Source: Acidobacteriota bacterium | Lineage (GTDB): Bacteria > Acidobacteriota > Thermoanaerobaculia > Gp7-AA8 | Assembly (NCBI GenBank): GCA_019244185.1 | Contig: JAFATB010000026.1 | Location: 156,130-220,129 of the forward strand | DNA: 64,000 nt | Direction: 5' to 3' | Shown: positions 5,640-54,843 of the stretch, one piece after another | Layout of the letters: each line of letters starts with the position of its first letter | Position numbering within the stretch: position 1 is the first letter of the stretch | Program-made: the position numbers and the translations under genes | The notes under the pieces: model-generated | Database searches by the model: none | The model's input: the letters and a program-made list of their open reading frames with translations, nothing else | Told to the model about the DNA's origin: nothing

Positions 5640-5665
5640 CGCGCTCACGCGTCTGACTCGTGCGC

Positions 5666-7900: not shown

Positions 7901-7902
7901 TC

Positions 7903-10032: not shown

Positions 10033-10134
10033 GACAAACCGTTTCAGCAGTGTGACCACCGTGTCGCGCGAGCGCGATAACGTAAGCGGCACCGCGTTCC
10101 CCGAAGTGCAACGCCTGTTTTGCGAAGGAGGATC

Positions 10135-12240: not shown

Positions 12241-12249
12241 GAGGAATCG

Positions 12250-14382
12250 ATGCGAATCCAGTCACGCTGTTTCGCAGTCGCGTTGATCGCAGCAGTCGCT
12301 GTTGGAGCGCACGCGCAATCGTCGCATTCGACGGCGTCGGTCGACGTGAACCTCGTGGAAGTGCCGGTCACGGTCACGACCGGTGACGGCCAGCCGGTGC
12401 GCGGCCTCACGAAGCGCAACTTCGAGGTCTACGACCAGGGGCATAAGAAAGAGATCACGAACTTCGAAGTCGTCGACGTCGCCTCCGTCGAGCCGGCGGT
12501 GCAGCAGGCCGGCGGCGCCGCGCGGCCCGCGGCCGGCGCGCGCAACTTCATGCTGCTGTTCGACCTCGGCAACTCGCTGCCGTCATCGCTCGTGCGCGCG
12601 CGCACGGCGGCGCTGAACTTCATTCAGCATCAGCTGCTGCCCGGCGATCGCATCGCCGTCGCGACGATCGCTCCGCTGCAGGGCTTCCGGCTGCAGGCGA
12701 ATTTCTCGACCGACCGCCAGCTCGCCGAGATCGCCATCCAGACGCTCGGCTCCGCGCAGTCGGGACATTCCGGCGATCCTCTGCTCCTGACGCGCGCCGA
12801 CATCGCCGACCTCGCACCGGTCAACGGACGCAACGGCGCGAGCGAGCTGCCGACCAGCCGGACTGGACACAACGTCAAAACGCCCGACGTCGACATGGGC
12901 GCGCTCGCGGAAGAGAGCATCGTCGCGACGTCGCACATGACGCGCACGGCGAGCGATCAGGCGCAGCGGCAGTACGTGCAGCGCCAGTTGCACGACTTCA
13001 CGGCCATGGGCGACGCGCTCGACCGCGTGCAAGGCCGCAAGCAGGTGATCCTGCTCAGCGAAGGCTTCGATCCGAAAGCGCTGCAGGGACACGCGACCGG
13101 GACGGTGAATTCCGAGGAGGCGCAGGCGGAGCAGTCGGCGGCGGAGTCGGGCGAAATCTGGCGGATCGACAATGACGCGCGCTTCGGCAGCAGCTCGTCG
13201 CGCAGCGACCTCGGCGCCATGGTCGACGCGCTGCGGCGCGCTGACGTCGTGCTCAACGCGATCGACATTCGCGGCCTGCGCGGCAACCTCGACGCGACCG
13301 CCGACGCGACGGTCGCTGGCGCGAACAACGACTCGCTCTTCCTGCTCACGAACGACACCGGCGGCGTCGTGTACCGCAACTCGAACGACCTGCAGTCGAA
13401 CTTCGCGCAGCTCCTCAAGTCGCAGGAAGTCACGTACGTGCTCGCGTTCAACGGCGCGACGTCGGAGCCGGGCGCATTTCACAACCTGAAGGTCAAGCTC
13501 GTGAATGCGCCGAAAGCGCGCGTGAACTACCGCGTCGGCTACTACGAGCCGCGTCCCGTGCTGTCGGACATGGACCGCCTGCTCTCCGCGAGCGAGATCC
13601 TCATGAACAGCGTGCCGATGCACGACGTCGACGTGCGCGCGCTGGCGACGGTCATCCCCGGCAGCGGGCCGCGCGCCGAGGTGCCGGTCGTCATCGAGAC
13701 CGACGGCAAGGACCTGCTGTCGAACGCCGGCACGTCGGTCTTCGAAGAGATCTACGTCTACGCCTTCAATCAGGATCAGCTCATCTCCGACTACGCGCAC
13801 CAGCGCATGAGCCTCGATCTCGCGAAAGTGCGCGACCGCATCGCCGCGGCGGGCGTGAAGCTCTACGCGACGCTCGACCTCGCGCCGGGCGACTATGACA
13901 TCCGCGTGCTCGTCGTCGCCGACGGCACGCGCAACGGCTTCACCAGCACGCCGCTGCACGTGCCGCAGCCGAACGAGCCGTACGCGCTGGCCGCGATCAA
14001 CGATCCGCGTCCGTGGCTGATGGTGAAAGCGGCCGACAAGCAGCAGGATCGCCCGTATCCGTTCGCGCTCGGCGAGAAGATGATCGTGCCCGCGGCACGG
14101 CCGTCGCTGTCGCGCGGCGCGCACGAGATCGCGCTGCTCGCGCACGGCTTCGGCGTCGAGCCGCTGCAGGTCGACGCCGTCGTCGAAGACGCGTCGGGGA
14201 ACCACATCCCGGTGACGCTGTCGCTCGTCGGCCGCACCGATCCCGACGCGCAGGGGAACGTCAAGCTGCTTTACTCGTTCGCACCGCAGGTCGCGAACGG
14301 CCAGTACTCACTCGTCGCCACCTTGCGCAGCAGCGCCCATCCCGCGCCGCTGCGCGTCACGATGCCGTTCACGATGGAGTAG
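12250..14382 (+). CDS. Acidobacterial-type VWA-domain protein (paralog 2)
   Basis: AGGAGG RBS; colinear paralog of 10135-12240. Confidence 0.88.
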   Translation: MRIQSRCFAVALIAAVAVGAHAQSSHSTASVDVNLVEVPVTVTTGDGQPVRGLTKRNFEVYDQGHKKEITNFEVVDVASVEPAVQQAGGAARPAAGARNFMLLFDLGNSLPSSLVRARTAALNFIQHQLLPGDRIAVATIAPLQGFRLQANFSTDRQLAEIAIQTLGSAQSGHSGDPLLLTRADIADLAPVNGRNGASELPTSRTGHNVKTPDVDMGALAEESIVATSHMTRTASDQAQRQYVQRQLHDFTAMGDALDRVQGRKQVILLSEGFDPKALQGHATGTVNSEEAQAEQSAAESGEIWRIDNDARFGSSSSRSDLGAMVDALRRADVVLNAIDIRGLRGNLDATADATVAGANNDSLFLLTNDTGGVVYRNSNDLQSNFAQLLKSQEVTYVLAFNGATSEPGAFHNLKVKLVNAPKARVNYRVGYYEPRPVLSDMDRLLSASEILMNSVPMHDVDVRALATVIPGSGPRAEVPVVIETDGKDLLSNAGTSVFEEIYVYAFNQDQLISDYAHQRMSLDLAKVRDRIAAAGVKLYATLDLAPGDYDIRVLVVADGTRNGFTSTPLHVPQPNEPYALAAINDPRPWLMVKAADKQQDRPYPFALGEKMIVPAARPSLSRGAHEIALLAHGFGVEPLQVDAVVEDASGNHIPVTLSLVGRTDPDAQGNVKLLYSFAPQVANGQYSLVATLRSSAHPAPLRVTMPFTME

Positions 14383-14390
14383 GACCGACC

Positions 14391-16472
14391 ATGAGAAAAA
14401 AGATCATCAGTGTCTCCACCGCGCTTCTTCTCACCGCAGTGACGTTGCCCGTGCAGCCGCAGGCAACGCGTTCCGATGCATCGATTCAGGTCAACCTCGT
14501 CGAGCTGCCGGTCACGGTCACGTCGACCAACGGCGATCCGGTGCGCGGCCTCACGAAGGAGAACTTCGAGATCTACGATCAGGGCCGCAAGCAGGACATC
14601 ACGAACTTCGAGATGATCGACTTCGCCGACAGCGCGCAGCAGCAGCCGTCCGCGGCGACGGCCGAAGCCGCGCGCCCCGCGGCGGCGCGCAACTTCCTGT
14701 TGCTCTTCGACCTCGGCAACTCCAGTCCCACCGCGCTCGTGCGCGCGCGCAGCGCGGCGAGCGACTTCGTGAACAAGCAGGTGCTGCCGCACGACCGCGT
14801 CGCCGTGGCCACGATCGCACCGCAGCAGGGCTTTCAGCTGCACGCGAATTTCTCGACCGACCGCAAGCTCGCCACGTCGGCCATCGACACGCTCGGCCTC
14901 CCGCAACTGCAGCAGACCGGCGATCCGCTGCTCGTGACGATGAAGGAGCTCGGCGTCACCGACATCGTCCCCGCCGTGGGCGCCAACCAGAAAGAGGCGG
15001 TTGCGCTCGAAACGCTGCAGGGAATCTCGCTCGCGTCGCGCCGCGCCAATGATGCCGCGCAGCGCGAGTACGTCGACCGGCAGCTGCATGAATTCGCCTC
15101 GATGGGTGCGATGCTCGATCGCGTTCCGGGACGCAAGCAGGTCATTCTGCTCAGCGAAGGGTTCGATCCGAAGGTGCTGCAGGGACACGGCAATGCGCCG
15201 TCCGAGGAAACGCGCGCGGAACAGGACGCCTCCGAGCGCGGCGAGATCTGGAACATCAACAGCGAGGCGCGCTTCGGCAGCAGCTCGTCGCGTTCGAACC
15301 TCGGCGCGATGGTCGATTCACTGCGCCGCTCCGACGTCGTGCTCAACGCGATCGACATCCAGGGACTGCGCGGCGGCACCGACGCGAAGTCGATCGGCAC
15401 GTCGCAGGCGACCAGCAACGACTCGCTCTTCCTGCTCACGAACGACACCGGCGGCACGGTGTTCCGCAACACGAACAATCTCGCCGGCAACTTCTCGCAG
15501 CTGCTCCGCACGCAGGAAGTCACGTATCTGCTCGCGTTCAACGGCGCGAGCACGAAGCCGGGGACGTTTCACAACCTGAAGGTGAAGCTCGTGAACGCGC
15601 CGAAAGCGCGCGTGAACTATCGCGTCGGCTACTACGAGCCGCACCCGATCGCGTCGGACATGGATCGCCTGCTCTCGGCCGGCGAGATCATGATGAACAG
15701 CATCCCGGTGGCGGACGTGAAGATGCACGTGCTCGCGACGCCGATCCCGGCCGCGGACAAGGCGGAAGTCCCCGTCGTCGTCGAGACCGAGGGGTCGAGC
15801 CTGCTCGCGAACGTCACGACGCCGTCGGTGGCGGAGGAGTTCTACGTCTACGCGTTCGACCCGAAAGGCACCATCGTCGACTTCGCGCATCAGCGCATGA
15901 ACCTCGACCTCGCGAAAGTGCGCGACCGCATCGCCGCGAACGGCGTGAAGCTCTTCTCGACGCTCGACCTCCCGCCGGGCGACTACGACCTGCGCGTGCT
16001 CGTCATCGCCGCCGGCACGCGCAACAGCTTCCAGAGCGTGCCGCTGCATGTACCGGCCGCCACGGACGCATACGCGACCGCCGCGATCGCCGACCCGCAG
16101 CCGTGGCTCATGGTGCGCGCCGTCGACAAGAATCCGAATCGCGCGTATCCGTTCGCATTCGGCGAGAAAGTGCTCGTCCCCGCCGCGCGCGCATCGCTCG
16201 CGAACGGCCCGCACGATCTCGCCGTCGTCACGCACGGCTTCGGCGCCGATCCGGTGCGCGTGGACGCCCACGTCGAAGACGCGAACGGCAAGCAGAGCGC
16301 GGCCGCGCTGTCGCTCGTCGGACGGACGAGCGCCGACGAAGCGGGCAACGTGAAGCTGCTCTTCTCGTTCGCGCCGGACCTGCCGCACGGCGACTACGCG
16401 CTGGTGATGACGCTGCACGGCGACGCGCGCCCCGACGAGGCGCACGTGCGGCTGCCGTTCAGCGTGGAGTAG
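14391..16472 (+). CDS. Acidobacterial-type VWA-domain protein (paralog 3)
   Basis: ATG 14391 gives signal peptide MRKKIIS...; colinear paralog. Confidence 0.88.
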   Translation: MRKKIISVSTALLLTAVTLPVQPQATRSDASIQVNLVELPVTVTSTNGDPVRGLTKENFEIYDQGRKQDITNFEMIDFADSAQQQPSAATAEAARPAAARNFLLLFDLGNSSPTALVRARSAASDFVNKQVLPHDRVAVATIAPQQGFQLHANFSTDRKLATSAIDTLGLPQLQQTGDPLLVTMKELGVTDIVPAVGANQKEAVALETLQGISLASRRANDAAQREYVDRQLHEFASMGAMLDRVPGRKQVILLSEGFDPKVLQGHGNAPSEETRAEQDASERGEIWNINSEARFGSSSSRSNLGAMVDSLRRSDVVLNAIDIQGLRGGTDAKSIGTSQATSNDSLFLLTNDTGGTVFRNTNNLAGNFSQLLRTQEVTYLLAFNGASTKPGTFHNLKVKLVNAPKARVNYRVGYYEPHPIASDMDRLLSAGEIMMNSIPVADVKMHVLATPIPAADKAEVPVVVETEGSSLLANVTTPSVAEEFYVYAFDPKGTIVDFAHQRMNLDLAKVRDRIAANGVKLFSTLDLPPGDYDLRVLVIAAGTRNSFQSVPLHVPAATDAYATAAIADPQPWLMVRAVDKNPNRAYPFAFGEKVLVPAARASLANGPHDLAVVTHGFGADPVRVDAHVEDANGKQSAAALSLVGRTSADEAGNVKLLFSFAPDLPHGDYALVMTLHGDARPDEAHVRLPFSVE

Positions 16473-34381: not shown

Positions 34382-34743
34382 TGCGCGCCTCCGCGCTGCC
34401 AGATGCCGAAGACGCGGCGGTCGGGATCCTCGAACAGCGCCAGCGCGCCCATGTTCGGGATCTCCATGCGCGGCACGAGCGTCGTCCCGCCGGCCGCCTC
34501 GATCTTCGCGCGATACGCGTCGAGATCATCGACGTCGATGTACAGCGCGAGGTTGCCGGGCCACGGCCCGTCCTGCGGCGTGGTAATGCCGCCGTTGATG
34601 CCGTTCTCCGCGCGCGTGTCGACGAGGCGGTAGTTCAGCGCCTCGATGAACGTCACTTCCCAGTCGAAGACGTCCGCGTAAAAGCGTCCGACCTTCTCCG
34701 GATCCTTGGACCATAGTTCCCAATGCACGACCGGTTTGCCCAC
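34378..34743 (-). CDS. VOC/glyoxalase family protein
   Basis: AAGGAG RBS, GTG; VVHWEL, FYADVFDW, GINGG, FEDPDRRVFGIWQ. Confidence 0.9.
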   Translation of the reverse strand: MGKPVVHWELWSKDPEKVGRFYADVFDWEVTFIEALNYRLVDTRAENGINGGITTPQDGPWPGNLALYIDVDDLDAYRAKIEAAGGTTLVPRMEIPNMGALALFEDPDRRVFGIWQRGGAQ

Positions 34744-34804
34744 GTCTGCTCCTTTCGATTTCGCGCAAACGGTGAGGCCGCGGCGGACGTCCGCCAACGA
34801 CTTT

Positions 34805-34834
34805 TCGGCGGACGCGCGCGACGGCTCGGCGAAT
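34805..34834 (-). promoter_or_regulatory. Putative LytTR binding site (9-bp direct repeat, 12-bp spacer)
   Basis: Minus strand ATTCGCCGA-N12-GTCCGCCGA upstream of the VOC gene, next to a LytS/LytTR pair. Confidence 0.5.
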
Positions 34835-34879
34835 CGACCGGAGCGCCTGCACGTGGCGAGCTACCATGAGCCAGCGCTC

Positions 34880-35941
34880 ATGCTCGTCCGCACGCTGCTT
34901 CGAAATCTCGCACTGCTCGTCGCCGCGTGGCTGCCGTTTTTCTCGTTGTGGGTCTTCTTCGCGGCCGCGTACGGGCATCAATCGGTCGGCGCGGCGTCGT
35001 ATCTCGCCTTCTACACGATCGGCAGCGCCGCCTTTCTCGGCCTCGGCGTCTGGTACTACTGCGCGGCTTACCGCTGGCCGCAAGAGGTGCGCATCGGCTT
35101 CTACGCGCGTCACCTGGCCATGGCGTCGCTGTACTCCGCGTTGTGGATCCTGGCCACGTACTGGATCGGCAGTCTCCGCTTTCACGAATCGCTGTGGCAT
35201 TCCATCGTCACCTCGCAGATCCTCGGCTGGCAGTTCGTGATGGGCGTGTGGCTCTACGGCCTCGTCGCCGGCGTGACCTACGCGATGCAGACGCGCGAGT
35301 GGGCGACGCGCGCGGAGATCCGCGCCGCGCGCGCGGAGGCGGCGCTGCACGAGGCGCGGCTCGAGGCGCTGCGCAACCGCCTGCATCCGCACTTTCTGTT
35401 CAACGCGCTGCACACCGTCGCCGCGCTCGTGCGCGAAGACGCCACGCGCGCCGAGAACGCGGTTGACAAGCTCGGCGAGCTGCTGCGCTACACGCTCAGC
35501 GAAGAGCGCGACGTCGTGCCGCTGCGCGAGGAGTGGGAGCTGACGCGGCGCTATCTCGAGTTCGAGCAGCTGCGTTACGAGGAGCTCCTGCGCGTGAAGG
35601 CGGAGATCCAGTTGGAATCGCTCGCCTGCGCCGTGCCGTCGTTCGCCGTGCAGACGCTGGTCGAGAACGCGGTGCGGCACTCGATCGCCACGCGCACGAC
35701 CGGAGGCCACGTCGAGGTCTCCGCGATCGTGAGCGACGGACGCCTGCGCGTCATCGTGCGCGACGACGGCTCCGGCGCCGGCGGCGACGCCGGCATGCGC
35801 TCCGGCTTGCGCACGCTGCGCGAACGCCTCGCCGCCGTTCACGGCAACGACGCGCAGGTGACGTCGCGCACGGCGGCGGGGGAGTACGAGGCCGGCTTCT
35901 CGATCCCGTGCGCGCGCGCCGCGGAGCCGGTCGATGACTGA
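34880..35941 (+). CDS. LytS/YehU-family sensor histidine kinase
   Basis: TM helices, LHPHFLFNALH, ENAVRH, DDGSG, GLRTLRERL. Confidence 0.92.
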   Translation: MLVRTLLRNLALLVAAWLPFFSLWVFFAAAYGHQSVGAASYLAFYTIGSAAFLGLGVWYYCAAYRWPQEVRIGFYARHLAMASLYSALWILATYWIGSLRFHESLWHSIVTSQILGWQFVMGVWLYGLVAGVTYAMQTREWATRAEIRAARAEAALHEARLEALRNRLHPHFLFNALHTVAALVREDATRAENAVDKLGELLRYTLSEERDVVPLREEWELTRRYLEFEQLRYEELLRVKAEIQLESLACAVPSFAVQTLVENAVRHSIATRTTGGHVEVSAIVSDGRLRVIVRDDGSGAGGDAGMRSGLRTLRERLAAVHGNDAQVTSRTAAGEYEAGFSIPCARAAEPVDD

Positions 35942-36692
35942 CGCGGTACGCGTCGTTATCGCTGACGACGAGCCGCTCGCGCGGCGCGCGTTGCGCGAGC
36001 ACCTGCGCCACGTCGACTGGGTCGGTCGCGTCGACGAAGCGGCGGACGGCTTGTCCGCCGTGCGCCTCGTCGACGAGCTGCGCCCCGATCTCGTCTTCCT
36101 CGACGTCGTGATGCCGGGGCTCTCCGGCGTCGAAGCGGCGGAGCAGTTCGCGCACCGGCCGCACATCATCTTCACCACCGCGTACGACCGCTACGCCGTG
36201 ACCGCGTTCGAGCTCGGCGCGCTCGACTATCTCCTCAAGCCGTTCGGACGCGAGCGCGTTCTCGGCGTGCTCGATCGCGCGCGCGTCGCCCTGCAGCACG
36301 GCGTCCCGCGCATCGCCGCGCGCGCCAGTCAGGTGCTGCGGCAGTCGATGCCCGTGTCGTCGATCTACGTCAAGGAACGCGGGCGGCTCCTGCGCATCCC
36401 AGCCGATCGCGTGCAGCGGCTCGAGGCGTGCGACGACTACGTCGCGGTGCACGCCGACGGGAAGCGCCACCTCATGAACGCGCGCCTCGGCGATCTGCAC
36501 GCGCGGCTCGATCCCGCGCGTTTCGTGCGCGTGCATCGCTCGCACGTCATCAACGTCGACTTCATCGACGCCGTCGAAACCGGCAACGGCTCGCGGCTCG
36601 TGGTCGTGCTGCGCGACGCCACGTGCGTCACCGCGAGCCGCAGCGGCTCCGCGCAACTGCGCTCGCTCGTCGTGGCGGGTGTCGAACGATAA
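35934..36692 (+). CDS. LytTR response regulator
   Basis: DDEPLAR, FLDVVMP, DYLLKP, FVRVHRSHVIN. Confidence 0.95.
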   Translation: MTDAVRVVIADDEPLARRALREHLRHVDWVGRVDEAADGLSAVRLVDELRPDLVFLDVVMPGLSGVEAAEQFAHRPHIIFTTAYDRYAVTAFELGALDYLLKPFGRERVLGVLDRARVALQHGVPRIAARASQVLRQSMPVSSIYVKERGRLLRIPADRVQRLEACDDYVAVHADGKRHLMNARLGDLHARLDPARFVRVHRSHVINVDFIDAVETGNGSRLVVVLRDATCVTASRSGSAQLRSLVVAGVER

Positions 36693-44166: not shown

Positions 44167-44239
44167 GCGACGCGGATGATAGTCGACTTCGCCGCCGCTT
44201 CACATCCCGCGCGTGTGCCGACATCGATTGGCGCGACGT

Positions 44240-44311
44240 GGCCGTCCTCGCCGGCCCGGCATTCGTCACGCGCGACGGCGGATTCGTCACACGTTTCGGT
44301 GAACTCGTCCC
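44240..44311 (+). promoter_or_regulatory. LytTR-type direct repeat array (21-bp period)
   Basis: GGCCGTCCT (44240), ATTCGTCAC (44261), ATTCGTCAC (44282), ACTCGTCCC (44303); TACACT -10 at 44342. Confidence 0.7.
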
Positions 44312-44369
44312 ATCGCCTTACCGCGGCGAAGGCCTCGGCCCTACACTTCGATGTTCCTTCTTTCGGCAG

Positions 44370-45509
44370 ATGGAGAATCCAACCGTCGCCTCGCACGATT
44401 CGCGTCTCTCCAGAAGGGTGCGCTGGTTCGGTCAGGTGCTCGCCGGCTGCGCCCTGGTCGGCCTCTTCCGCGCCAGTCACGAGTGGATGTTCAGCGCGTT
44501 TTCCGACGCGCACATCCCGCTGCAGCAGCTCGTGGTGCCGTATCTCCTCATCAGCGTCTCGTGGGCGGTCCTGACCGCGGTCGTCTTCGGCGTCGTCTAC
44601 CGCATTCCGATGGGCCGGCTCGACTCGTGGCGGACGCTCCTCACGATCTTCGTGCCGATGATCGTCATGGTCGCCGCCACCGCCGTCGTCGGCGAGCATC
44701 TCTCGTATCAGATCTCGCAGTCGACGCGCGCCGCGCTCACGAGCCGCTTCTTCATGCACGAGTTTCATCCCGCGCTCTTCGACGCCTTCATCATCCTCGG
44801 CATCGCCTGCGCGATCCGCATCCGCGACGACGCGGCCGAGCGCGCGCTGCGCACCGAGCGGCTCGAGTCGCAGCTGGGCCAGGCGCAGATCCGCGCGCTG
44901 CGCTCGCAGCTGCAGCCGCACTTCCTCTTCAACGCCCTGCACTCGATCTCCGCGGTCGTCTACGACGCGCCGGAAAAAGCGGAGGTGATGATCGCGCGCC
45001 TCGCCGACCTGCTGCGCATGTCGATCGACTCCGCGCACGACCAGTTCGTGCCGCTGCGCAGCGAGATCGCCTTCGTCAGCCGCTATCTCGACGTACAGCA
45101 GGCGCGCTTCGGCGAGCAGCTGCGCGTCTGCTGGAACCTCGACGTCACGACGCTCGGCCTGCCGGTGCCGAACTTCATCCTGCAGCCGCTGCTCGAGAAC
45201 TGCTTCAAGCACGGCATCGGGCAGTCGCCCGGCCCGTACACGATCCGCCTCGTCACCGCGCTCGAAGACGCGTCGCTCGTCCTGCGCATCGAAGAAGAGC
45301 ACGGCGCCGGCGGCGCCTTGCCGGCCGGACCGGTCGGCGACGGCGTCGGCCTCGCGAATCTCCGCGCGCGGCTGCACGCGCTCTACGGCGGCAGCGCGTC
45401 GCTCGACGTGCGCATCCGCCACGAGAACGGCGGGGGTAGCGTCGCCATCGTGCGTCTGCCGCCCGGCGCGCTCGCCGTCGCGGACGATCCGCACAGCAGC
45501 GCCGCGTGA
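44370..45509 (+). CDS. LytS-family sensor histidine kinase
   Basis: TM helices, QLQPHFLFNALH, ENCFKHG, GVGLANLRARL. Confidence 0.9.
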   Translation: MENPTVASHDSRLSRRVRWFGQVLAGCALVGLFRASHEWMFSAFSDAHIPLQQLVVPYLLISVSWAVLTAVVFGVVYRIPMGRLDSWRTLLTIFVPMIVMVAATAVVGEHLSYQISQSTRAALTSRFFMHEFHPALFDAFIILGIACAIRIRDDAAERALRTERLESQLGQAQIRALRSQLQPHFLFNALHSISAVVYDAPEKAEVMIARLADLLRMSIDSAHDQFVPLRSEIAFVSRYLDVQQARFGEQLRVCWNLDVTTLGLPVPNFILQPLLENCFKHGIGQSPGPYTIRLVTALEDASLVLRIEEEHGAGGALPAGPVGDGVGLANLRARLHALYGGSASLDVRIRHENGGGSVAIVRLPPGALAVADDPHSSAA

Positions 45510-45522
45510 TGCGGGGCGCGCG

Positions 45523-46299
45523 TCAGACGCCGATAATCGCGCGCTCGAGACGCGCGCGATACGTGGCCGACAACCGCAGCTGCTTGCCGTCGCGCAGCAC
45601 GACGATGAGGTCGCGATGAAACGCGCTGTGCAGCGCCGCGATGCGGTCGACGTTGACGATCGTCGAGCGGTGGATGCGGATGAACGACGCGGGATCGACG
45701 CTCTGCTCGAACTCGGCGATGGTGACGCGGTGCAGATGCGACTCACGGCCACAGTGCAGCCGCACGTAGTTGCCTTCCGCGCTGATGTAGTCGACGTCCT
45801 GCATCCGCAGCACGATCGAACGCTTCCCCGAGCGCACCGCCAGACGGTCGATGTGCTTCAGCGTCTCCTCGGCGGCGCTCTCTTCCTGCGCGGCGGACGC
45901 CCGCGCGTAACGGCGACGGCGCACGCGATCGAGCGCGCGCGCGAAACGCTCGCGGTCGAACGGCTTGAGCAGATAGTCGGTCGCGCGCGTATCGAAGGCG
46001 CGCACCGCGTAGTCGGCGAACGCGGTGACGAAGATGATCTCCGGCTCGTAGTCGCCGTGCGTGGCGAGCTCGCCGACGATGTCGAAGCCGCTCAGCTGCG
46101 GCATCTCGACGTCCATGAAGATGAGGTCGGGCCGGCTCTCGCTCAGCTCGTCCGCGACATGCGCGCCGCCCGGATACTCGTCGACGACGGTGATGTCGCT
46201 CTCGTGCAGGAGCAGGTCGCGGATCCGCTTGCGCGAAAACGGCTCGTCGTCCACCACGGCCGCGCGGATCAACGCGCCCTCGCCCGTCAGCGTCTGCAT
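45523..46299 (-). CDS. LytTR response regulator (convergent with the kinase)
   Basis: DDEP, FMDVEMP, DYLLKPF, FIRIHRSTIVN. Confidence 0.95.
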   Translation of the reverse strand: MQTLTGEGALIRAAVVDDEPFSRKRIRDLLLHESDITVVDEYPGGAHVADELSESRPDLIFMDVEMPQLSGFDIVGELATHGDYEPEIIFVTAFADYAVRAFDTRATDYLLKPFDRERFARALDRVRRRRYARASAAQEESAAEETLKHIDRLAVRSGKRSIVLRMQDVDYISAEGNYVRLHCGRESHLHRVTIAEFEQSVDPASFIRIHRSTIVNVDRIAALHSAFHRDLIVVLRDGKQLRLSATYRARLERAIIGV

Positions 46300-48375: not shown

Positions 48376-49281
48376 ATGCGTCTGGTCACGCGTGGTGACC
48401 TCGACGGCCTCACGAGCGCCGTCATCATCACGATGAAGGAGCCGGTGGACGAGCTCCTGCTCGTGCATCCGCAGGACATCACCGACCAGCGCGTCGACAT
48501 CCGCTCCGACGACATCCTCACGAACCTGCCGTACGACCCGCGCTGCGGCATGTGGTTCGATCACCATCTCCTCACCGACAGCAACCAGCGTCCCTCCGGC
48601 GCGTTCCGCGGCCGCTACGACATCGCGCCGTCGGCGGCGCGGCTCGTGTACGACTACTACCTCGAACAGGCACCCGACGATCCCGCGCTGCTGCGCCTCG
48701 CGCCGCTCGTCGACGAGACCGACCGCCTCGACGCCGCGCTCCTCACGCCCACCGACGTCGAGTCGCCACGCGACTACATCCTCCTCGGCTACACGATGGA
48801 CAGCCGCACCGGCCTCGGCGCGTTCGACGATTACTTCCGCAAGCTCGTCGCCTGGCTCAAGACGATGTCCATCGACGAGGTGCTCGCGCAGCCGGATGTC
48901 CGCGAACGCGTGGAACGCATCCGCGCCGATCAGGCGGACTTCAAGCGCCTCCTCGTGCGCAACAGCTTCCTGCTGAACAACGTCGTCGTCACCGACCTGC
49001 GCGAGATCGACCGGCTCCCCGCCGGCAACCGCTTCCTCGTCTACTCGCTCTTCCCGCAGGCGAACGTCTCGCTGCGCGTGCACTGGGGACCGCGCGAGAA
49101 CAGCGTCATCGCCGCGGTCGGCCACAGCATCTTCAACCGCACGTGCAAGACATCGGTGGGCGAGCTGATGTCGCGCTTCGGCGGCGGCGGCCACCGCGGC
49201 GCCGGCACGTGCGTCCTCCCCGTGGAGCGCGCGGCCGACGCCATCGATGAGATCCTCTACGAACTGCAGGCGAACGGATGA
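48376..49281 (+). CDS. DHH/DHHA1 phosphoesterase (exopolyphosphatase/nanoRNase-like)
   Basis: GGAGG RBS; TRGDLDG, FDHH, PSAAR, GGGGHRGAG. Confidence 0.88.
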   Translation: MRLVTRGDLDGLTSAVIITMKEPVDELLLVHPQDITDQRVDIRSDDILTNLPYDPRCGMWFDHHLLTDSNQRPSGAFRGRYDIAPSAARLVYDYYLEQAPDDPALLRLAPLVDETDRLDAALLTPTDVESPRDYILLGYTMDSRTGLGAFDDYFRKLVAWLKTMSIDEVLAQPDVRERVERIRADQADFKRLLVRNSFLLNNVVVTDLREIDRLPAGNRFLVYSLFPQANVSLRVHWGPRENSVIAAVGHSIFNRTCKTSVGELMSRFGGGGHRGAGTCVLPVERAADAIDEILYELQANG

Positions 49282-51566
49282 AACTACGCACCGCGCTCCT
49301 CCTGGTCCTCGCGCTTGCCGCGCCCGCGTTCGCGGCGTCGAATCAGAACGTCGTCGAAGGCAACAGCGGCCTCACCATCGTGCGCGTCACGTTCACGATT
49401 CCGGCGCCGGTGAATCTGCCGGTCACCGGGCATTACGAGACGGTGGACGGCACGGCCACCGCGGCCGACAACGACTACCAGCCCGTGAGCGGCGACTTCG
49501 TCATTCCGTCGGGCCAGACGTCGAGCGAGCCGGTCGACATCCCGATCGTCGGCGACACGAAAGTGGAGTCCGACGAGACGTTCCAGCTCGTCCTCAGCAA
49601 CATCCAGAACGGCGCCGAGCTCGATCCCGGTCCGTACTCCTTCACGATCGTCAACGACGACGCGCCGGTCATCAGCGTCACCGGCACCTCCGTGCGCGAA
49701 GGCAACTCTGGCACGACCGCGCTGCCGTTCGACATCGTGCTCGGCGCGCCGGCGGCGACGCCGCTGCAGATCGCATACACCACGATCCCCGGCACGGCGA
49801 CGGCGGGCGAGGACTACGTCCCCGCGAACGCCACCGTGACGTTCGCGCCGGGCGAGGTGCGCAAGACCGTGAACGTCACGGTGATCGGCGACACGCGATT
49901 CGAGCCCGACGAGACGCTCACGCTCGTCGCCGCGCAGTCCGGCCTGCCGCCGTCCGCACCCGCGAGCGCCGTCGGCACGATCATCAACGACGACACGCGC
50001 CCGGCCGCGAGCCTCACCATCGTCAGCGGCAACAACCAGAGCGGGCGGCTCGGCCAACCACTCGCGCAGCCGCTGGTCGTGCAGGTCAACGACGCTGCGG
50101 GCGCGCCCGTCGCCGGCGCAACCGTGCAGTGGAGCGTGACGCGCGGCGCCGCGCAGCTCGATCCCGCCACGAGCACGACCAACGCGGAAGGACGCGCGTC
50201 GACGATCGTGACGCCGAACAGCGTCGGCGCCATCGACATCCGCGCGAGCTCCGGCGATCTGCCGCCGGTCACGTTCACGATCGCCGCGCAGACGACGCTC
50301 GAAGCGCGCGCGAACGGCCCGGTCGCGAAACCGATCGCGCACGTGCTCGACGGCGTCTGCGCGCGCAACGAAGAGCCGTTCACGCTCGTCTGCCGCGCGC
50401 TCGAACGCCTGCCCGACACCGACCTCACGCCCGCCCTCGAGCGCATCGCGCCGCAGCAGGCGGGCGCGCAGTCGAAGATCGCCGGCGAGATCATCGCGAA
50501 CATCACCGCGAGCCTCAGCGCGCGCCTCGCCGAACGCCGCGCCGGCGCGCGCTTCTCGCTGCAGCACGCGTCGCTCTCGATCGGCGGACAGCCCGTGCCC
50601 GTGGCCATCGTCGCGAACGCGCTCCTCGAACAGACCGGCACCGGCGCCGCGACGGGCGACGCGAACGGCGACGACTACAACGGCTGGTCCGCGTTCGTCA
50701 GCGGCAATCTCGGCACCGGCGAGCGTCGCGCGAGCTCCGGCGCGCTCGGCTTCGATCTCGATACAAGCGGCGTGATGGTGGGCGTCGATCGGCAGTTCGG
50801 CGAGAACATCTTCGGCCTCTCCGCGAACGCCGGCTGGCTCGACGCGACGCTCAGCGCCGGCACCGGCACCGTCGACACGACGAACTACGCGCTCTCGCTC
50901 TACGGCAGCCGCGGCGGTCTCTTCGCCGGCAGCGCCGCGCCGTCCACCGGCACGTCGATGCATTACGACGGCGTGCATCTCGAAGGCAGCCTCACCGCCG
51001 GACGCAGCCAGTTCGACGCCACGCACATCGTGAGCGTGCCGCTCCTGCCGTCGTCGACCGCGCACAGCTCGAACGATGCGACGCTCTTCGCGCTCACCGC
51101 GGGGGGCGGCGTCGACGCGCATCGCGGCCGCACCGACTTCGACTTCGCGCTCTCCGGCACGTGGTCGCGCACGCGGATCGACGACCTCGCCGAAAGCGAC
51201 GCCGGTCCGCTGGTGCTCTTCGTCGATGGACACGACATCGAGTCGCTCGTCGCCAACGCGGGACTCGACGTCCGCTCCGCGATCGCGGTGCCGTTCGGCA
51301 CGCTGATGCCGACGTTCCGCGGTGAGCTCGTGCACGAGTTCCGCAGCGCGGCGCGCCTCGTCACCGCGCACTTCCTGCACGACCATCTCGGCACCGGCTT
51401 CACGATTCCGGTCGATCAGCCGGACGCGAACTACGGCAAGCTGTCGGCGGGCCTGCAGGCGGTCTTCCCGCGCGGCGTCTCCGCGTTCGTCGAGGTGACG
51501 CAGGACGTGGCGCGCTCCGACTTGCGCTTCCGTACGCTGCAGTTCAATCTGTCGAAGTCGTTCTGA
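49278..51566 (+). CDS. Autotransporter-like outer membrane protein: two Calx-beta + Ig-like + beta-barrel
   Basis: EGNSG..DGTATA..DY..GDT..E.DETF twice; SGNNQSG..PLVVQV Ig-like domain; barrel ending LSKSF. Confidence 0.85.
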   Translation: MKLRTALLLVLALAAPAFAASNQNVVEGNSGLTIVRVTFTIPAPVNLPVTGHYETVDGTATAADNDYQPVSGDFVIPSGQTSSEPVDIPIVGDTKVESDETFQLVLSNIQNGAELDPGPYSFTIVNDDAPVISVTGTSVREGNSGTTALPFDIVLGAPAATPLQIAYTTIPGTATAGEDYVPANATVTFAPGEVRKTVNVTVIGDTRFEPDETLTLVAAQSGLPPSAPASAVGTIINDDTRPAASLTIVSGNNQSGRLGQPLAQPLVVQVNDAAGAPVAGATVQWSVTRGAAQLDPATSTTNAEGRASTIVTPNSVGAIDIRASSGDLPPVTFTIAAQTTLEARANGPVAKPIAHVLDGVCARNEEPFTLVCRALERLPDTDLTPALERIAPQQAGAQSKIAGEIIANITASLSARLAERRAGARFSLQHASLSIGGQPVPVAIVANALLEQTGTGAATGDANGDDYNGWSAFVSGNLGTGERRASSGALGFDLDTSGVMVGVDRQFGENIFGLSANAGWLDATLSAGTGTVDTTNYALSLYGSRGGLFAGSAAPSTGTSMHYDGVHLEGSLTAGRSQFDATHIVSVPLLPSSTAHSSNDATLFALTAGGGVDAHRGRTDFDFALSGTWSRTRIDDLAESDAGPLVLFVDGHDIESLVANAGLDVRSAIAVPFGTLMPTFRGELVHEFRSAARLVTAHFLHDHLGTGFTIPVDQPDANYGKLSAGLQAVFPRGVSAFVEVTQDVARSDLRFRTLQFNLSKSF

Positions 51567-51571
51567 TCCGC

Positions 51572-53056
51572 ATGCGCTCCGCCGCCGCGCTCTTGTTGCT
51601 GCTCGCTGTCTTCGCGCCGATCCTGCGCGCGCAGAACGCCGACGATCTCGTGCTCGTCGACTGCCGCCTGCCGCCGAAGATGAAACGCATCGGCGGGCGC
51701 ACGTATCCGGTCGCTGCGCGTCCGATCCGCACGACCGCGCTCGACTGCCGCATTCGCGGCGGCGAGTACACGGTGTACGACCGCGCGAACTACGCAACGT
51801 CGCTCAAGATCTGGCTCGACGCCGCGGAGAAAGGCGATCGCGACGCGCAGTACTACGTCGGCAAGCTCTACGAAGGCGGCCTCGGCACGCCGCCCGATTT
51901 CGCCGCCGCCGCGCGCTGGTACGCGAAGGCCGCCGACGCGGGCCTCAGCGCCGCGCAGTTCAGCCTCGGGACGCTCTACGAAAAGGGCCTCGGCGTTCCC
52001 GCCGATCCGGCCAAAGCGTTCGCGCTCTATCGCCGCGCCTCGGGACTGCCGGACAACGTCGTGCTCGTCGAGAGCGCGAAGTACGAGGAGCTCGAGCGCG
52101 CCGCGAACGACCTCGCCGCGCGCGAGCAGGAGATCGACGAGCTGCAACGCCAGCTCGACGACGCGCGCAAACAGCACAAGCTCGATCATCAGCGCGAGCG
52201 CGAGCTCACGCAGCAACTCGACGCCGCGAAACAAAAGGCGGACACGCAGCGCAAAGACGTCGCCAGCAAACGCAACGCGGTGCACGTCGCCGCGACGAAT
52301 GCCGCGCCGCTGCCGTCCGCGAAGCGCGGGACGCTCGGACGCTACGTCGCGCTCGTCATCGGCAACGCGACGTACGACCATCTGCCGCCGATGCCGTCGG
52401 CCGAAACGAACGCGCGCGCCGTGGCCGCGCTGCTGCGCGACGCGTACGGCTTCGACGTCACGCTGCTCCTCAACGCGCGCAACGACGCCATCCTCGCCAG
52501 CCTCTACAAACTGAGCCAGACGCTCGGCGAGAACGACAATCTCGTCGTCTACTACGCCGGCCACGGCCGCCGCGACCTGCGCAACCGGCGCGGCTGGTGG
52601 CTGCCTGCCGACGCGGATGCCGACGCCGCCGCGAAGACGAACTGGCTGCCGAATCAGGACGTCAGCGACCGGCTCGCGCTCGTGCCCGCGCGGCACATCC
52701 TCGTCCTCGCCGACGCGTCGTACGTCGGCGACATCACCCGCGGCGCGCCGCAGCCCGCGCCTTCGAACCTCACCGCCGCGCAGTGGTCGAAGTATCTCGA
52801 GACGACGAAGAGCCGCCGCGCGCGGCTCGCGCTCTCGTCCGGCGCGGACGAGCCGTCCGCCACCGGCTCGCGCTTCACGGCCGCGCTGCTCGAAGTGCTG
52901 CAAAAGCAGAAGGGCGTCGTGCCCGCGTCGCGCATCCACCAGGAGGTGGTCAACGTGTTGACCGCCGACGAGCGAGTGACCTCCGCCGTGCCGATCTTCG
53001 CGCCGCTGCAGTCGGCGTTTCACGACGGCGTCGACTTCCTCTTCGAGCGCCGATGA
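51572..53056 (+). CDS. Secreted Sel1-repeat + coiled coil + caspase-like (C14) protein, catalytic Cys to Ser
   Basis: Signal peptide; AQYYVGKLYEGGLG / AQFSLGTLYEKGLG Sel1 repeats; YVALVIGN, YYAGHG, LADASY. Confidence 0.88.
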   Translation: MRSAAALLLLLAVFAPILRAQNADDLVLVDCRLPPKMKRIGGRTYPVAARPIRTTALDCRIRGGEYTVYDRANYATSLKIWLDAAEKGDRDAQYYVGKLYEGGLGTPPDFAAAARWYAKAADAGLSAAQFSLGTLYEKGLGVPADPAKAFALYRRASGLPDNVVLVESAKYEELERAANDLAAREQEIDELQRQLDDARKQHKLDHQRERELTQQLDAAKQKADTQRKDVASKRNAVHVAATNAAPLPSAKRGTLGRYVALVIGNATYDHLPPMPSAETNARAVAALLRDAYGFDVTLLLNARNDAILASLYKLSQTLGENDNLVVYYAGHGRRDLRNRRGWWLPADADADAAAKTNWLPNQDVSDRLALVPARHILVLADASYVGDITRGAPQPAPSNLTAAQWSKYLETTKSRRARLALSSGADEPSATGSRFTAALLEVLQKQKGVVPASRIHQEVVNVLTADERVTSAVPIFAPLQSAFHDGVDFLFERR

Positions 53057-54843
53057 GCACCGTTCTCGACGAGATCGCGGAGCGCTTCGACGTCCTCGCC
53101 AAGCTCGGCGAGGGCGGCATGGGCTGCGTCTACAAGGTCCGCCACCGCGACCTCGACGAAGTGCAGATCGTGAAGACGCTGCAGGCGCACCTCAGCACGA
53201 ACGAAGGGCTGCGCACGCGCTTCATCAATGAGGCGCGCCGAGGAATGAGGTTGAGGCATCCGCACATCGCGGGAGTGCATGATTTTCACGTCTGCGCGGA
53301 CGGCACCGGCTACATCGTGATGGAGTACGTGCACGGCCTCAATTTGCGCGACCTCGTCAGCGCGCGCGGGCCGCTGCGCGTGCCGCTCGTCGGCGCGATC
53401 GCCTTGCAGACGCTCGACGCGCTCGGCTACCTGCACAGCCAGAAGTTCGTTCACCGCGACATCTCGCCCGACAACCTGATCCTCACGCAGACCGCCGACG
53501 GCCACCCGTTCGTCAAGCTCATCGACCTCGGCATCTCGAAGTCGCTCGACGAAGGCAACACCATGACCCAGACCGGCCAGTTCCTCGGCAAGGTTGCGTA
53601 CGCGTCGCCCGAGCAGTTCGGCGGCCACGTGGACGGCCGCAGCGATCTCTATTCGTTCGGCGTCGTGCTCTACAAGCTACTGACGAACGAGGAGCCGTTT
53701 GCCGGCGAGAACTACCGCGAGATCATCAGCGCGCATCTCTTCCAGAAGCCGCGGCCGTTCCCGCCGGAGCTCGAGATTCCGGACGCCGTCCAGCAGGTCG
53801 TGTTCCGCGCGCTCGAGAACGAGCCGGCACATCGCTACGCCGACGCCCACGAGTTCGCGGATGCCGTCGAGGAAGCGTTCGGCGTGCAGCGCGAGCGGAC
53901 GACGCGTCCCGCGCTCGAACGCATCTCGCGCGCCGAAGACGCGACGCTCGTCGACGGCGAGACGACGGCGATCGACACCACCGTCGCGGAGACGTCGTTC
54001 GCCGCGGCACCGACCATCGGCGAAACGGTCGTCGCGCGTCCGCGCGCGTCGCGGCGCTGGCCGTTACTCGCAGCTATCGTCCTCGTGCTGCTCGTCGCCG
54101 GCGCGCTCGTCTGGCAGCGGATGCACGCGGCCGCGCTCGCGCGCTACGGCAACTTCTACGCGGTCGTCATCGGCGAAGGGGAGTACCGCAAGTTCGAAGC
54201 GCTGCCCACCGCCGTCGACGACGCGCGCGCCGTCGCGCAGTTGCTCGAGTCGCGATACGGCTTTCACGTAACGCGGCTCGAGAACGCGAAGCAGCAGGAG
54301 ATCCTCGCCGCGCTGAACGCCGTCGGCAAGCAGCTCACGCCCGCCGACAACCTGCTCGTCTTCTACGCCGGCCACGGCTCGCTGCTCAACGGCAAGGGCT
54401 ACTGGCAGCCGGTCGACGCCGGCTTCGACATGACGAACTGGATCTCGCCCGCGCTCGTGAAAGACGCGCTGCTCGATCATCCCGCGCGCCGTGCGCTCGT
54501 CATCGCCGACACGTGCTATTCCGGCGCGCTCGTGCACGGCGCGCTCGCGACGTTGCCGCCCGATGAGCGCTTGACGAAACGCGCGCGTCTCGTCCTCAGC
54601 TCCGGCGGCACCGCGCCGGTGATCGACTCCGCCGACGGCCGTCACTCGATCTTCACGCGCGCACTCCTCGACGTCCTCGGCGAGCGCGGACGCGGCGTCA
54701 CCGACGTGCAGTCGATCTTCACGCCGATTGAGGCGCGCGTCATCGACGCCGCCCGGCGCGACGGCCACGAGCAGAAGCCGGAGCTCGCCGCGATGGCCGA
54801 GGTGGGGGATGAGGGCGGGACGTTCTACTTCGTCAGGCGCTGA
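53053..54843 (+). CDS. Ser/Thr protein kinase - TM - caspase-like (C14) fusion
   Basis: GEGGMG, HRDISPDN, DLG, ASPE, SDLYSFG; TM WPLLAAIVLVLLVAGALVW; FYAGHG and ADTCYSG dyad. Confidence 0.92.
   Translation: MSTVLDEIAERFDVLAKLGEGGMGCVYKVRHRDLDEVQIVKTLQAHLSTNEGLRTRFINEARRGMRLRHPHIAGVHDFHVCADGTGYIVMEYVHGLNLRDLVSARGPLRVPLVGAIALQTLDALGYLHSQKFVHRDISPDNLILTQTADGHPFVKLIDLGISKSLDEGNTMTQTGQFLGKVAYASPEQFGGHVDGRSDLYSFGVVLYKLLTNEEPFAGENYREIISAHLFQKPRPFPPELEIPDAVQQVVFRALENEPAHRYADAHEFADAVEEAFGVQRERTTRPALERISRAEDATLVDGETTAIDTTVAETSFAAAPTIGETVVARPRASRRWPLLAAIVLVLLVAGALVWQRMHAAALARYGNFYAVVIGEGEYRKFEALPTAVDDARAVAQLLESRYGFHVTRLENAKQQEILAALNAVGKQLTPADNLLVFYAGHGSLLNGKGYWQPVDAGFDMTNWISPALVKDALLDHPARRALVIADTCYSGALVHGALATLPPDERLTKRARLVLSSGGTAPVIDSADGRHSIFTRALLDVLGERGRGVTDVQSIFTPIEARVIDAARRDGHEQKPELAAMAEVGDEGGTFYFVRR

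Follow-up and report, generated by a model that had tools for sequence, protein, structure and literature searches.

Proteins that keep a caspase fold but lack part of its catalytic dyad are known from eukaryotes and from prokaryotes. In the passages of PMC3220528 drawn on here, the Trypanosoma brucei metacaspase MCA4 retains the catalytic histidine and carries serine in place of the cysteine; it is inactive on a P1 library, active as S219C and processed by its active paralogue MCA3, and according to the authors no peptidase with a serine nucleophile was known in the caspase fold as of 2011. The corresponding passages of two surveys put pseudo-variants at 8.6% of the bacterial orthocaspases, often joined to TPR-type repeats, and place Sel1 among the commonest orthocaspase partner domains (PMC6426788, PMC3501461). 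The locus analysed here lies in a 64,000-nucleotide stretch of an Acidobacteriota bacterium (assembly GCA_019244185.1, contig JAFATB010000026.1, positions 156,130-220,129 of the forward strand; hereafter the window, whose own positions are given below) and pairs a Sel1-repeat protein, P0001, the caspase-like domain of which has no nucleophile cysteine, with a Ser/Thr kinase, P0002, the caspase-like domain of which has kept it.

P0001 is like MCA4 in being a clan-CD protein with His and Ser at the catalytic positions, and MCA4 is retained and functional without peptidase activity while its active paralogue acts on it. In contrast, MCA4 is a eukaryotic protein that acts at the cytoplasmic or flagellar membrane and has no Sel1 repeats, kinase fusion or outer-membrane partner, and its inactivity and processing are experimental results, whereas those of P0001 are inferred (PMC3220528, passages as above). 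With the pseudo-orthocaspases of Klemencic et al. (2019) and Asplund-Samuelsson et al. (2012), P0001 shares a prokaryotic p20-type domain with a substituted His-Cys dyad; those described in the passages covered are mostly of the YS, YA, FS, QC or HA types and come from Alphaproteobacteria and Cyanobacteria, unlike the HS type seen here. The same passages do not describe a dead copy in one operon with a kinase-fused live copy, although the supplementary tables might list such cases, and a text search of PMC6426788 returned no mention of Sel1 or of Acidobacteria. No description of a module made of a barrel, a kinase and a Sel1-caspase was found in the literature covered, from which subscription-only papers are excluded. 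Pseudo-orthocaspases and a His/Ser pseudo-metacaspase are thus already in print; what this locus adds to that known kind is an operon that combines a dead, exported caspase with a live one fused to a kinase, together with the family-wide pattern described below.

A further comparison is offered by vertebrates, where the genes of cFLIP(L) and procaspase-8 are paralogues and lie next to each other, the caspase domain being dead in the former and live in the latter. Pairs of this type heterodimerise through their protease-like domains and are recruited to one platform by death-effector domains. The first-pass annotation of the window had likened the present pair to these proteins, and the two cases do share adjoining paralogous genes and a dead domain that is retained beside a live one. 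However, no death-effector or other death-fold family is found among the Pfam matches of P0001 and P0002, the predicted location of both caspase domains is the periplasm, the live domain forms part of a kinase protein, and the two domains fall into separate clades and are not recent duplicates. Heterodimerisation of the kind seen with cFLIP would be speculative for P0001 and P0002. The likeness is only loose, reaching as far as a dead paralogue beside a live one and failing on domain content, origin and compartment.

A caspase-like domain without its nucleophile cysteine

Both proteins match Peptidase_C14 (PF00656) well above the cut-off of 21.4 bits, P0001 with 65.4 bits (E 8e-18) and P0002 with 87.8 bits (E 1e-24), next to Sel1 (E 2e-18) in the former and Pkinase (E 1e-41) in the latter, and an alignment of their caspase domains shows 39% identity across 247 columns (E 8e-35). 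In P0001, the motif YYAGHG contains His331 (CAC, 52562-52564) and the nucleophile position within L-A-D-A-S-Y is occupied by Ser383 (TCG, 52718-52720), whereas in P0002 the motifs FYAGHG and A-D-T-C-Y contain His441 (CAC, 54373-54375) and Cys488 (TGC, 54514-54516). The two sites are therefore as they had been annotated at first pass, with the His-Cys dyad of clan CD present in P0002 and broken in P0001. The latter has the properties of a pseudo-orthocaspase, namely a p20-type domain in which a residue of the dyad is substituted and which is otherwise intact and conserved.

The AlphaFold2 model of P0001, calculated with 61 sequences, has a mean predicted local distance difference test score (pLDDT) of 79.6, with most of the caspase domain at 80-97, and the predicted structure has a caspase-like fold. 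A Foldseek search of the PDB with the model retrieved GSU0716 (3bij), procaspase-1, caspase-4, Yca1 and MALT1 with E-values of 3e-8 to 2e-7 and a probability of 1.00, whereas searching the solved structures by sequence, with the dead domain as query, yielded marginal matches at best (top E 0.21, caspase-4). The loop around the dyad (LADASYVGDITRG) is nearly invariant among the orthologue clusters, and the Asp two residues ahead of the nucleophile position is invariant. The least confident part of the domain comprises residues 331-360, at a pLDDT of only 53-67. Directly after His-Gly, a conserved Arg-rich stretch, RRDLRNRRG (residues 333-341, 52568-52594), is specific to the dead clade and could serve as a cleavage or binding site for a protease with basic P1 preference.

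The serine codon is no sequencing error. It reads TCG in 10 of 10 same-genus assemblies, and it is likewise found in the contigs, as distinct from raw reads, of four public runs. Those of three runs, possibly the source samples of the window itself, have no differing letters over 52500-54600, while those of the fourth, which stems from another study and a close relative with about three differing letters per 100 in its pieces, differ at 52717 (a synonymous change) but not at 52718-52720 or 54514-54516. Six runs were found in all, and none of them was listed as containing RNA. It had been argued that the replacement of cysteine requires two base substitutions; this is true of TGC to TCG, but the argument has no weight because TGC to TCC alone already gives serine and the step from TCC to TCG is silent.

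The substitution is a property of the whole orthologous group. Orthologues were tabulated from a collection of 5.8 billion proteins by taking the 120 top-ranking clusters, which range from 67 to 100% identity and include that of the window, and the nucleophile position of the Sel1 protein is Ser in 116 of them, Ala in four and Cys in none, while the His position is His in 116 and Arg in four, which are not the Ala-bearing ones. In the kinase partner both the His and the Cys are kept in 120 of 120 clusters, so that a change of Ser to Ala or His to Arg affects 8/120 otherwise intact Sel1 clusters versus 0/120 on the kinase side; the kinase motif HRDISPDN is present in 117 of the P0002 clusters and the other three are gapped there. 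With no Cys in the one protein and His/Cys kept throughout in the other, the contrast between dead and live domains is a stable family-wide trait.

The dead caspase domain is not decaying and is under stronger purifying selection than the live one. In eight genomes with both genes, compared in 28 pairs by the Nei-Gojobori method, the approximate mean ratio of nonsynonymous to synonymous substitution rates (dN/dS) is 0.24 (0.05-0.37) for the Ser-bearing domain versus 0.36 (0.20-0.48) for the Cys-bearing domain, and dN is lower in the Ser-bearing domain in all 28 pairs. Neither cysteine in the close orthologues nor relaxed selection on this copy, which together would have spoken against a retained regulator, is therefore seen. 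The earlier suggestion of a retained and selected copy beside an intact-dyad paralogue is upheld, and this copy is almost certainly non-catalytic.

The latter point is drawn from the residues themselves. In 45 columns the two active groups have the same residue, with a conservation of 85% or more; these groups comprise 97 Cys-bearing Sel1-type or representative domains and 120 kinase-borne domains. The Ser clade keeps 37 of the 45 columns and differs at eight, including G425A, Q472A, G483F, G487V and, just before the nucleophile position, S382A. The remaining dead lineages vary at the same columns. As the nucleophile position is also occupied by Ala, Ile or Val in orthologues of the same gene cassette, and further residues of the active lineages are lost, P0001 is almost certainly a pseudoprotease rather than a serine enzyme, as judged from its sequence.

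The three-gene cassette and its relatives

The genes of P0001 and P0002 are co-directional, their ends sharing an ATGA in which the ATG of P0002 overlaps the TGA stop of P0001, and the gene of an autotransporter-like protein is located directly upstream of the Sel1 gene with a gap of five bases. The Sel1-caspase was found in 11 of 61 related genomes, 9/35 within the genus (this one included) and 2/26 elsewhere in the class. In all ten other carriers an autotransporter homologue and a kinase-caspase adjoin the Sel1 gene, one of the kinases being cut by a contig end; in one genome (G043) the kinase lies ahead of the Sel1 gene, and in another (G051) the cassette is divided between the two strands. 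The genes that flank the cassette in the window are not conserved beside it in any of these ten genomes. The cassette thus comprises three genes and has a patchy distribution. At the nucleophile position its Sel1 orthologues carry Ala (G043), Ile (G051) or Val (loci L064 and L068), with Cys in all of the kinase partners, and further family members have Leu, Ala, Ile or His at this position (L044, L076, L057, L120, L122, L135 and P0133).

The caspase subfamily itself is large, with 16,918 cluster representatives at E <= 0.001; among the best 150 of these and three added proteins, 144 of 160 domains have the His/Cys pair. Proteins that combine the DCxIRGGEY motif with Sel1 repeats and a caspase domain are widespread in Gamma- and Alphaproteobacteria and occur in other phyla. 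Scans for the family confirmed 654 stretches in genomes, of which 79 loci were kept, and 375 in metagenomes, of which 80 were kept. Within about 5-6 kb in these 159 loci, many of which are short, the neighbours include an autotransporter barrel (65), a Hanks kinase (61), an alpha/beta-hydrolase-like lipoprotein (55), PP2C (21), FHA (10) and TssM (7).

Two side observations concern other arrangements of the same domain. A paralogue in the genome of the window (L002) has a normal His/Cys site, while another sequence (L005) is a partial match and a third (L003) is not matched by a two-sequence profile. Outside the window, the proteins P0123, P0124, P0125, P0146 and P0247 each have two tandem caspase domains of the same subfamily; at least one domain has no Cys (Val or Ser instead) in P0124, P0146 and P0247, and one has no His (Gln instead) in P0125. 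Such tandem proteins are dead/live combinations within a single chain.

The state of the Sel1-borne domain was cross-tabulated with that of the kinase in 65 loci that have both a kinase and a Sel1-caspase of readable nucleophile, the kinase being cut by a contig end in four. At the 14 loci where the kinase is fused to a caspase domain, which always has Cys, none of the Sel1 copies has Cys; beside a kinase with no caspase domain the Sel1 copy has it in 43 of 47. A quick maximum-likelihood tree (LG+G4) was built from 136 domains. It places the acidobacterial-type Sel1 domains in one starred clade with 24 rows, and Cys is absent from 21 of these (S, A, H, I or V). Absence of Cys from the Sel1 domains requires seven changes on this tree, at least five of which are forced by starred branches, and the three rows that do have Cys, P0126-P0128, branch within the starred clade next to the Ser group, which argues for several independent losses. 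The kinase-borne and the dead Sel1 domains fall into separate starred clades that are not sisters, and an origin of the dead domain as a recent local duplicate of the live one was rejected on this ground. The parsimonious sequence of events, as reconstructed from the domains, would be the acquisition by the kinase of a caspase domain in which the Cys was preserved, followed by several losses of the Cys from the Sel1 copy.

Among the proteobacterial relatives, Cys-bearing Sel1-caspase lipoproteins are encoded in L053 (2-7527), L045 (4894-12219), L044 (1501-9059) and L046 (2814-11182), where their neighbours comprise an autotransporter barrel, an alpha/beta-hydrolase-like lipoprotein, a PpkA-like kinase, PP2C or TagF-PP2C and FHA, as well as TssM in L053 and L044. 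By Pfam, a Nitrococcus locus contains TssM, TagF-PP2C, a kinase, a hydrolase-like protein and a Sel1-caspase, and a Spongiibacter locus contains FHA, a Sel1-caspase, a barrel, a hydrolase-like protein, a kinase and PP2C. The kinases at these loci have one transmembrane helix; their periplasmic tail is helical, about 110-145 residues long, and does not contain a caspase domain. By their gene content, the proteobacterial loci resemble a module, so far undescribed, that would act upstream in the threonine phosphorylation pathway of type VI secretion. In that pathway (PpkA/TagE, PppA, Fha1 and TagF, with the periplasmic and outer-membrane regulators TagQ/TagR or RtkS upstream) a single-pass Hanks kinase likewise has a periplasmic domain, on which a periplasmic protein acts that is itself linked to an outer-membrane component. 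The sensor domain of PpkA is a vWA domain, unlike the caspase domain found here, and the linked PP2C, FHA and type VI core genes of the pathway are not in the window. A 2026 review of type VI accessory factors (PMC13584744) does not contain the words caspase, Sel1 or autotransporter in its text.

The genome of the window has a type VI cluster on another contig (G000 C6, about 118000-141000; L118 and L119) with TssK, L, M, A, B and C, Hcp, TssE, TssF and VgrG, and two proteins with an eCIS_core domain are encoded near it. The 37 open reading frames scanned at this cluster include no kinase, FHA or PP2C, and none of the 49 scanned in the window is a PP2C, FHA or type VI gene. The TssM of this genome is missed by the Pfam family IcmF-related (PF06761) and matched by IcmF-related_N, so that a blank for PF06761 is a false negative. 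Across the 35 genomes of the genus, which are related and hence not independent, six have the cassette and TssC, three the cassette only, four TssC only and 22 neither. The cassette is present with no TssC match in G025 (97% complete), G017, G043 and G051, and a strict dependence on type VI secretion was rejected for this reason. Type VI secretion may be one output of the cassette, with the odds rather against it, and the link is suggestive and not a required one.

Organisation of the locus and its surroundings

The features of the cassette are collected in the table. The autotransporter-like protein matches Autotransporter (E 3e-29), Calx-beta (two copies, E 3e-29) and Big_1 (E 1e-11) in Pfam; it has a hydrophobic, signal-like N-terminus, as does P0001, and ends in an autotransporter beta-barrel. 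The start of P0002 is backed by the lengths of its orthologues, about 576-640 amino acids. As P0001 has a signal-like N-terminus and the membrane helix of P0002 is situated between its kinase and caspase domains, both caspase domains are predicted to be periplasmic.

Residues 22-75 of P0001 (51635-51796) form a beta domain with no match to any Pfam family. In this domain, which has the motif DCxIRGGEY and is conserved from Acidobacteriota to Proteobacteria, C31 is nearly invariant and C59 invariant; the two cysteines may mark a disulfide-bonded binding module.

Table. Positions of the cassette genes and their parts in the window
Feature	Position	Strand	Basis
Autotransporter-like outer-membrane protein, 762 amino acids, first gene of the cassette	49278..51566	+	Pfam
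P0001, exported (predicted) Sel1-repeat / coiled-coil / pseudo-caspase protein, 494 amino acids	51572..53056	+	Pfam, AlphaFold2, Foldseek
P0001, predicted signal peptide, residues 1-21 (...APILRAQ)	51572..51634	+	hydrophobic residues 3-21, Kyte-Doolittle 1.83
P0001, small N-terminal beta domain (C31, C59; DCxIRGGEY), then Sel1 repeats	51635..52051	+	invariant columns, Sel1 matches, secondary structure
P0001, two long helices, residues 168-238, coiled-coil-like stalk	52073..52285	+	DSSP on model: H168-200, H206-238
P0001, caspase-like (Peptidase_C14) domain without nucleophile Cys	52337..53053	+	Pfam, alignment, codon checks
ATGA overlap of P0001 stop and P0002 start	53053..53056	+	sequence; layout usual for translationally coupled genes
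P0002, Hanks-type Ser/Thr kinase with single transmembrane helix and caspase domain, 596 amino acids	53053..54843	+	Pfam, hydrophobicity
P0002, kinase domain, residues 13-263; HRD, DLG and VKT-Lys motifs conserved	53089..53841	+	Pfam
P0002, transmembrane helix, residues 336-354, WPLLAAIVLVLLVAGALVW	54058..54114	+	Kyte-Doolittle 2.5
P0002, predicted periplasmic caspase domain, intact dyad	54148..54840	+	Pfam, sequence

The rest of the window encodes sulfatases, TPR proteins, LytTR two-component pairs, peptidases and an erythromycin-esterase-like gene, and no mobile-element or defence-island genes were seen by Pfam among the 49 open reading frames scanned. Two neighbouring paralogues at 5660-10032 each combine a sulfatase domain with C-terminal TPR repeats and are followed by three large open reading frames (10120-16472) with no match to a Pfam family. 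LytTR-type two-component pairs (His_kinase PF06580 with Response_reg-LytTR) are present at 34706-36692 and 44238-46299, less than 10 kb apart.

A possible role in signalling across the cell envelope

The gene order, domains, residues, conservation, selection and family-wide pattern described above suggest a model in which the periplasmic location, the physical contact, the direction of regulation and the downstream target are inferred. At the outer membrane, the autotransporter-like barrel would carry the Calx-beta/Ig-like domains at the surface. The exported P0001 would lie in the periplasm with its Cys-pair domain, Sel1 repeats, helical stalk and non-cutting caspase fold, and at the inner membrane the Hanks-type kinase would use its periplasmic caspase domain, with an intact His/Cys dyad, as a sensor. 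Selection would maintain the fold and surface of P0001 for a task other than catalysis. Most likely P0001 would link the outer-membrane protein to the periplasmic protease domain of the kinase, in the manner of an adaptor or regulator, and/or would bind that protease without cleaving or serve as its substrate, and the output of the cassette would be phosphorylation in the cytoplasm. Catalysis looks as if it had been handed over, with the Sel1-caspase live in the wider family and the kinase-borne domain live in the acidobacterial lineage. A non-cutting regulatory role of P0001 is plausible from these features, and the reading that P0001 is a non-catalytic periplasmic part of an outer-to-inner-membrane signalling cassette, which uses its caspase-fold surface and basic loop for binding while the partner protease and the kinase do the chemistry, is given a probability of about 60%. 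A more specific and clearly more tentative version would make the cassette a trans-envelope coupler of proteolysis and phosphorylation: the live caspase of the kinase would be gated by the exported dead caspase, as an allosteric partner or a pseudosubstrate, which the Sel1 repeats and helical stalk would tether to the barrel. The split into a dead and a live domain would then have come about by a transfer of catalysis to the kinase from the Sel1 protein, which is live in proteobacteria. A predicted complex of P0002 residues 358-596 with P0001 residues 250-494 scored 0.23 and 0.07 against a mark of 0.32 and, its controls not having been folded, was counted neither way.

Several points weigh against the signalling role. 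The 14 loci with a fused kinase represent about four lineages (Ser, Ala, Ile and Val), so that 0/14 overstates the independent support. A dead Sel1-caspase also stands beside a kinase with no caspase domain in L044, L057, L101 and L135, and loss of the Cys therefore does not need a fused live copy; for the kinase of L101, where the Sel1 copy has Val, a search with a seed profile at E up to 10 revealed no hidden diverged caspase domain. The tree leaves 51 of its 130 inner branches unresolved, and for the gene context of the nearest Cys-bearing relatives, P0126-P0128, a metagenome scan gave no locus closer than 58% identity (best segment). With dS averaging about 0.65, the dN/dS values are approximate. 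The retention of Ser and of His in 116 of 120 clusters each would also be expected of a working His/Ser pair, and shared descent within one genus could equally explain it. Finally, the periplasmic placement is predicted from hydrophobicity alone, and contact between P0001 and P0002 is a hypothesis drawn from sequence.

Four alternative explanations were considered. If His331 and Ser383 were a working dyad in a caspase fold, P0001 would be an active serine-type peptidase, as the first-pass annotation had considered, and the high retention of the two residues, the nearly invariant loop and the invariant Asp would all be expected. This is very improbable, as Ala replaces Ser in four clusters and Arg replaces His in four other, otherwise intact ones, the position is Ala, Ile or Val in cassette orthologues and Leu or His in related lineages, and 8 of the 45 columns invariant in the active lineages are changed; in addition, the His/Ser protein TbMCA4 is inactive on a peptide library (PMC3220528, passages drawn on above). 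The dead domain might instead be mainly a target or pseudosubstrate of the kinase-borne protease, cut for example in the basic loop GHG-RRDLRNRRG, so that cleavage and not stable dimerisation would carry the signal. The conserved Arg-rich stretch of the dead clade lies in the region of low pLDDT, although a low pLDDT is no proof of a flexible loop. The DxC motif of P0002 is similar to metacaspase and orthocaspase sites with basic P1 preference. The processing of TbMCA4 by MCA3 provides a precedent (passages of PMC3220528), and overall this explanation is unlikely, though the strongest of the alternatives.

Slightly less likely still is a third possibility, in which the autotransporter-like protein is the sole partner of P0001, whose Sel1 and N-terminal domains would, for example, help to fold, anchor or display it, and in which the dead caspase is a structural remnant that does not interact with the kinase. 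The autotransporter gene is indeed the most constant neighbour of the family, if by a narrow count (65 of 159 loci versus 61 for the kinase). However, no part of the pair is better conserved than the dead domain, which ill suits a remnant, and the ATGA overlap and the strict adjacency of the kinase in 11 of 11 genomes (one kinase cut by a contig end) argue for a shared function of the Sel1 gene and the kinase. A role in anti-phage defence or abortive infection, with a kinase and caspase-like proteases as its components, would fit the patchy occurrence within the genus (9/35 genomes), and PADLOC reports kinase-domain matches to PD-T4-6 models (E 1e-74) and a weak match to 'caspase' (E 4e-6). 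The PADLOC matches, however, span only residues 3-358 of P0002, that is, the generic kinase domain and the linker to the membrane helix, and no NCBIfam defence model reaches its cut-off (MAD6, 141.6 bits versus 460), so that P0002 has no match to PD-T4-6 or MADS beyond the generic kinase domain or above a cut-off. Both protease domains are moreover predicted to lie outside the cytoplasm, the third gene encodes an outer-membrane protein, and the window genes include no mobile-element or defence-island genes among those seen; a defence role is the least probable of the explanations considered.

The cassette is of interest beyond the single locus. Exported bacterial caspase homologues are very numerous, with the 16,918 representatives in this one subfamily, and almost none has a known job. 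The acidobacterial lineage, to which the host of the cassette, a soil acidobacterium, belongs, offers a natural experiment in which the Sel1 copy has no Cys when the kinase carries a Cys-intact caspase domain, and yet remains under strong selection. The fixed neighbours, an outer-membrane barrel and a membrane kinase, lead to hypotheses on which copy cuts, what the substrate is and whether the dead copy controls the kinase. Read as a trans-envelope coupler, the cassette would convert an envelope or surface signal into Ser/Thr phosphorylation, and it would, if this is true, represent a prokaryotic and independently evolved counterpart of pseudo-caspase regulation. Should the pseudo-caspase regulate its partner, the control of a caspase by a dead caspase would have evolved outside animals and trypanosomes as well.

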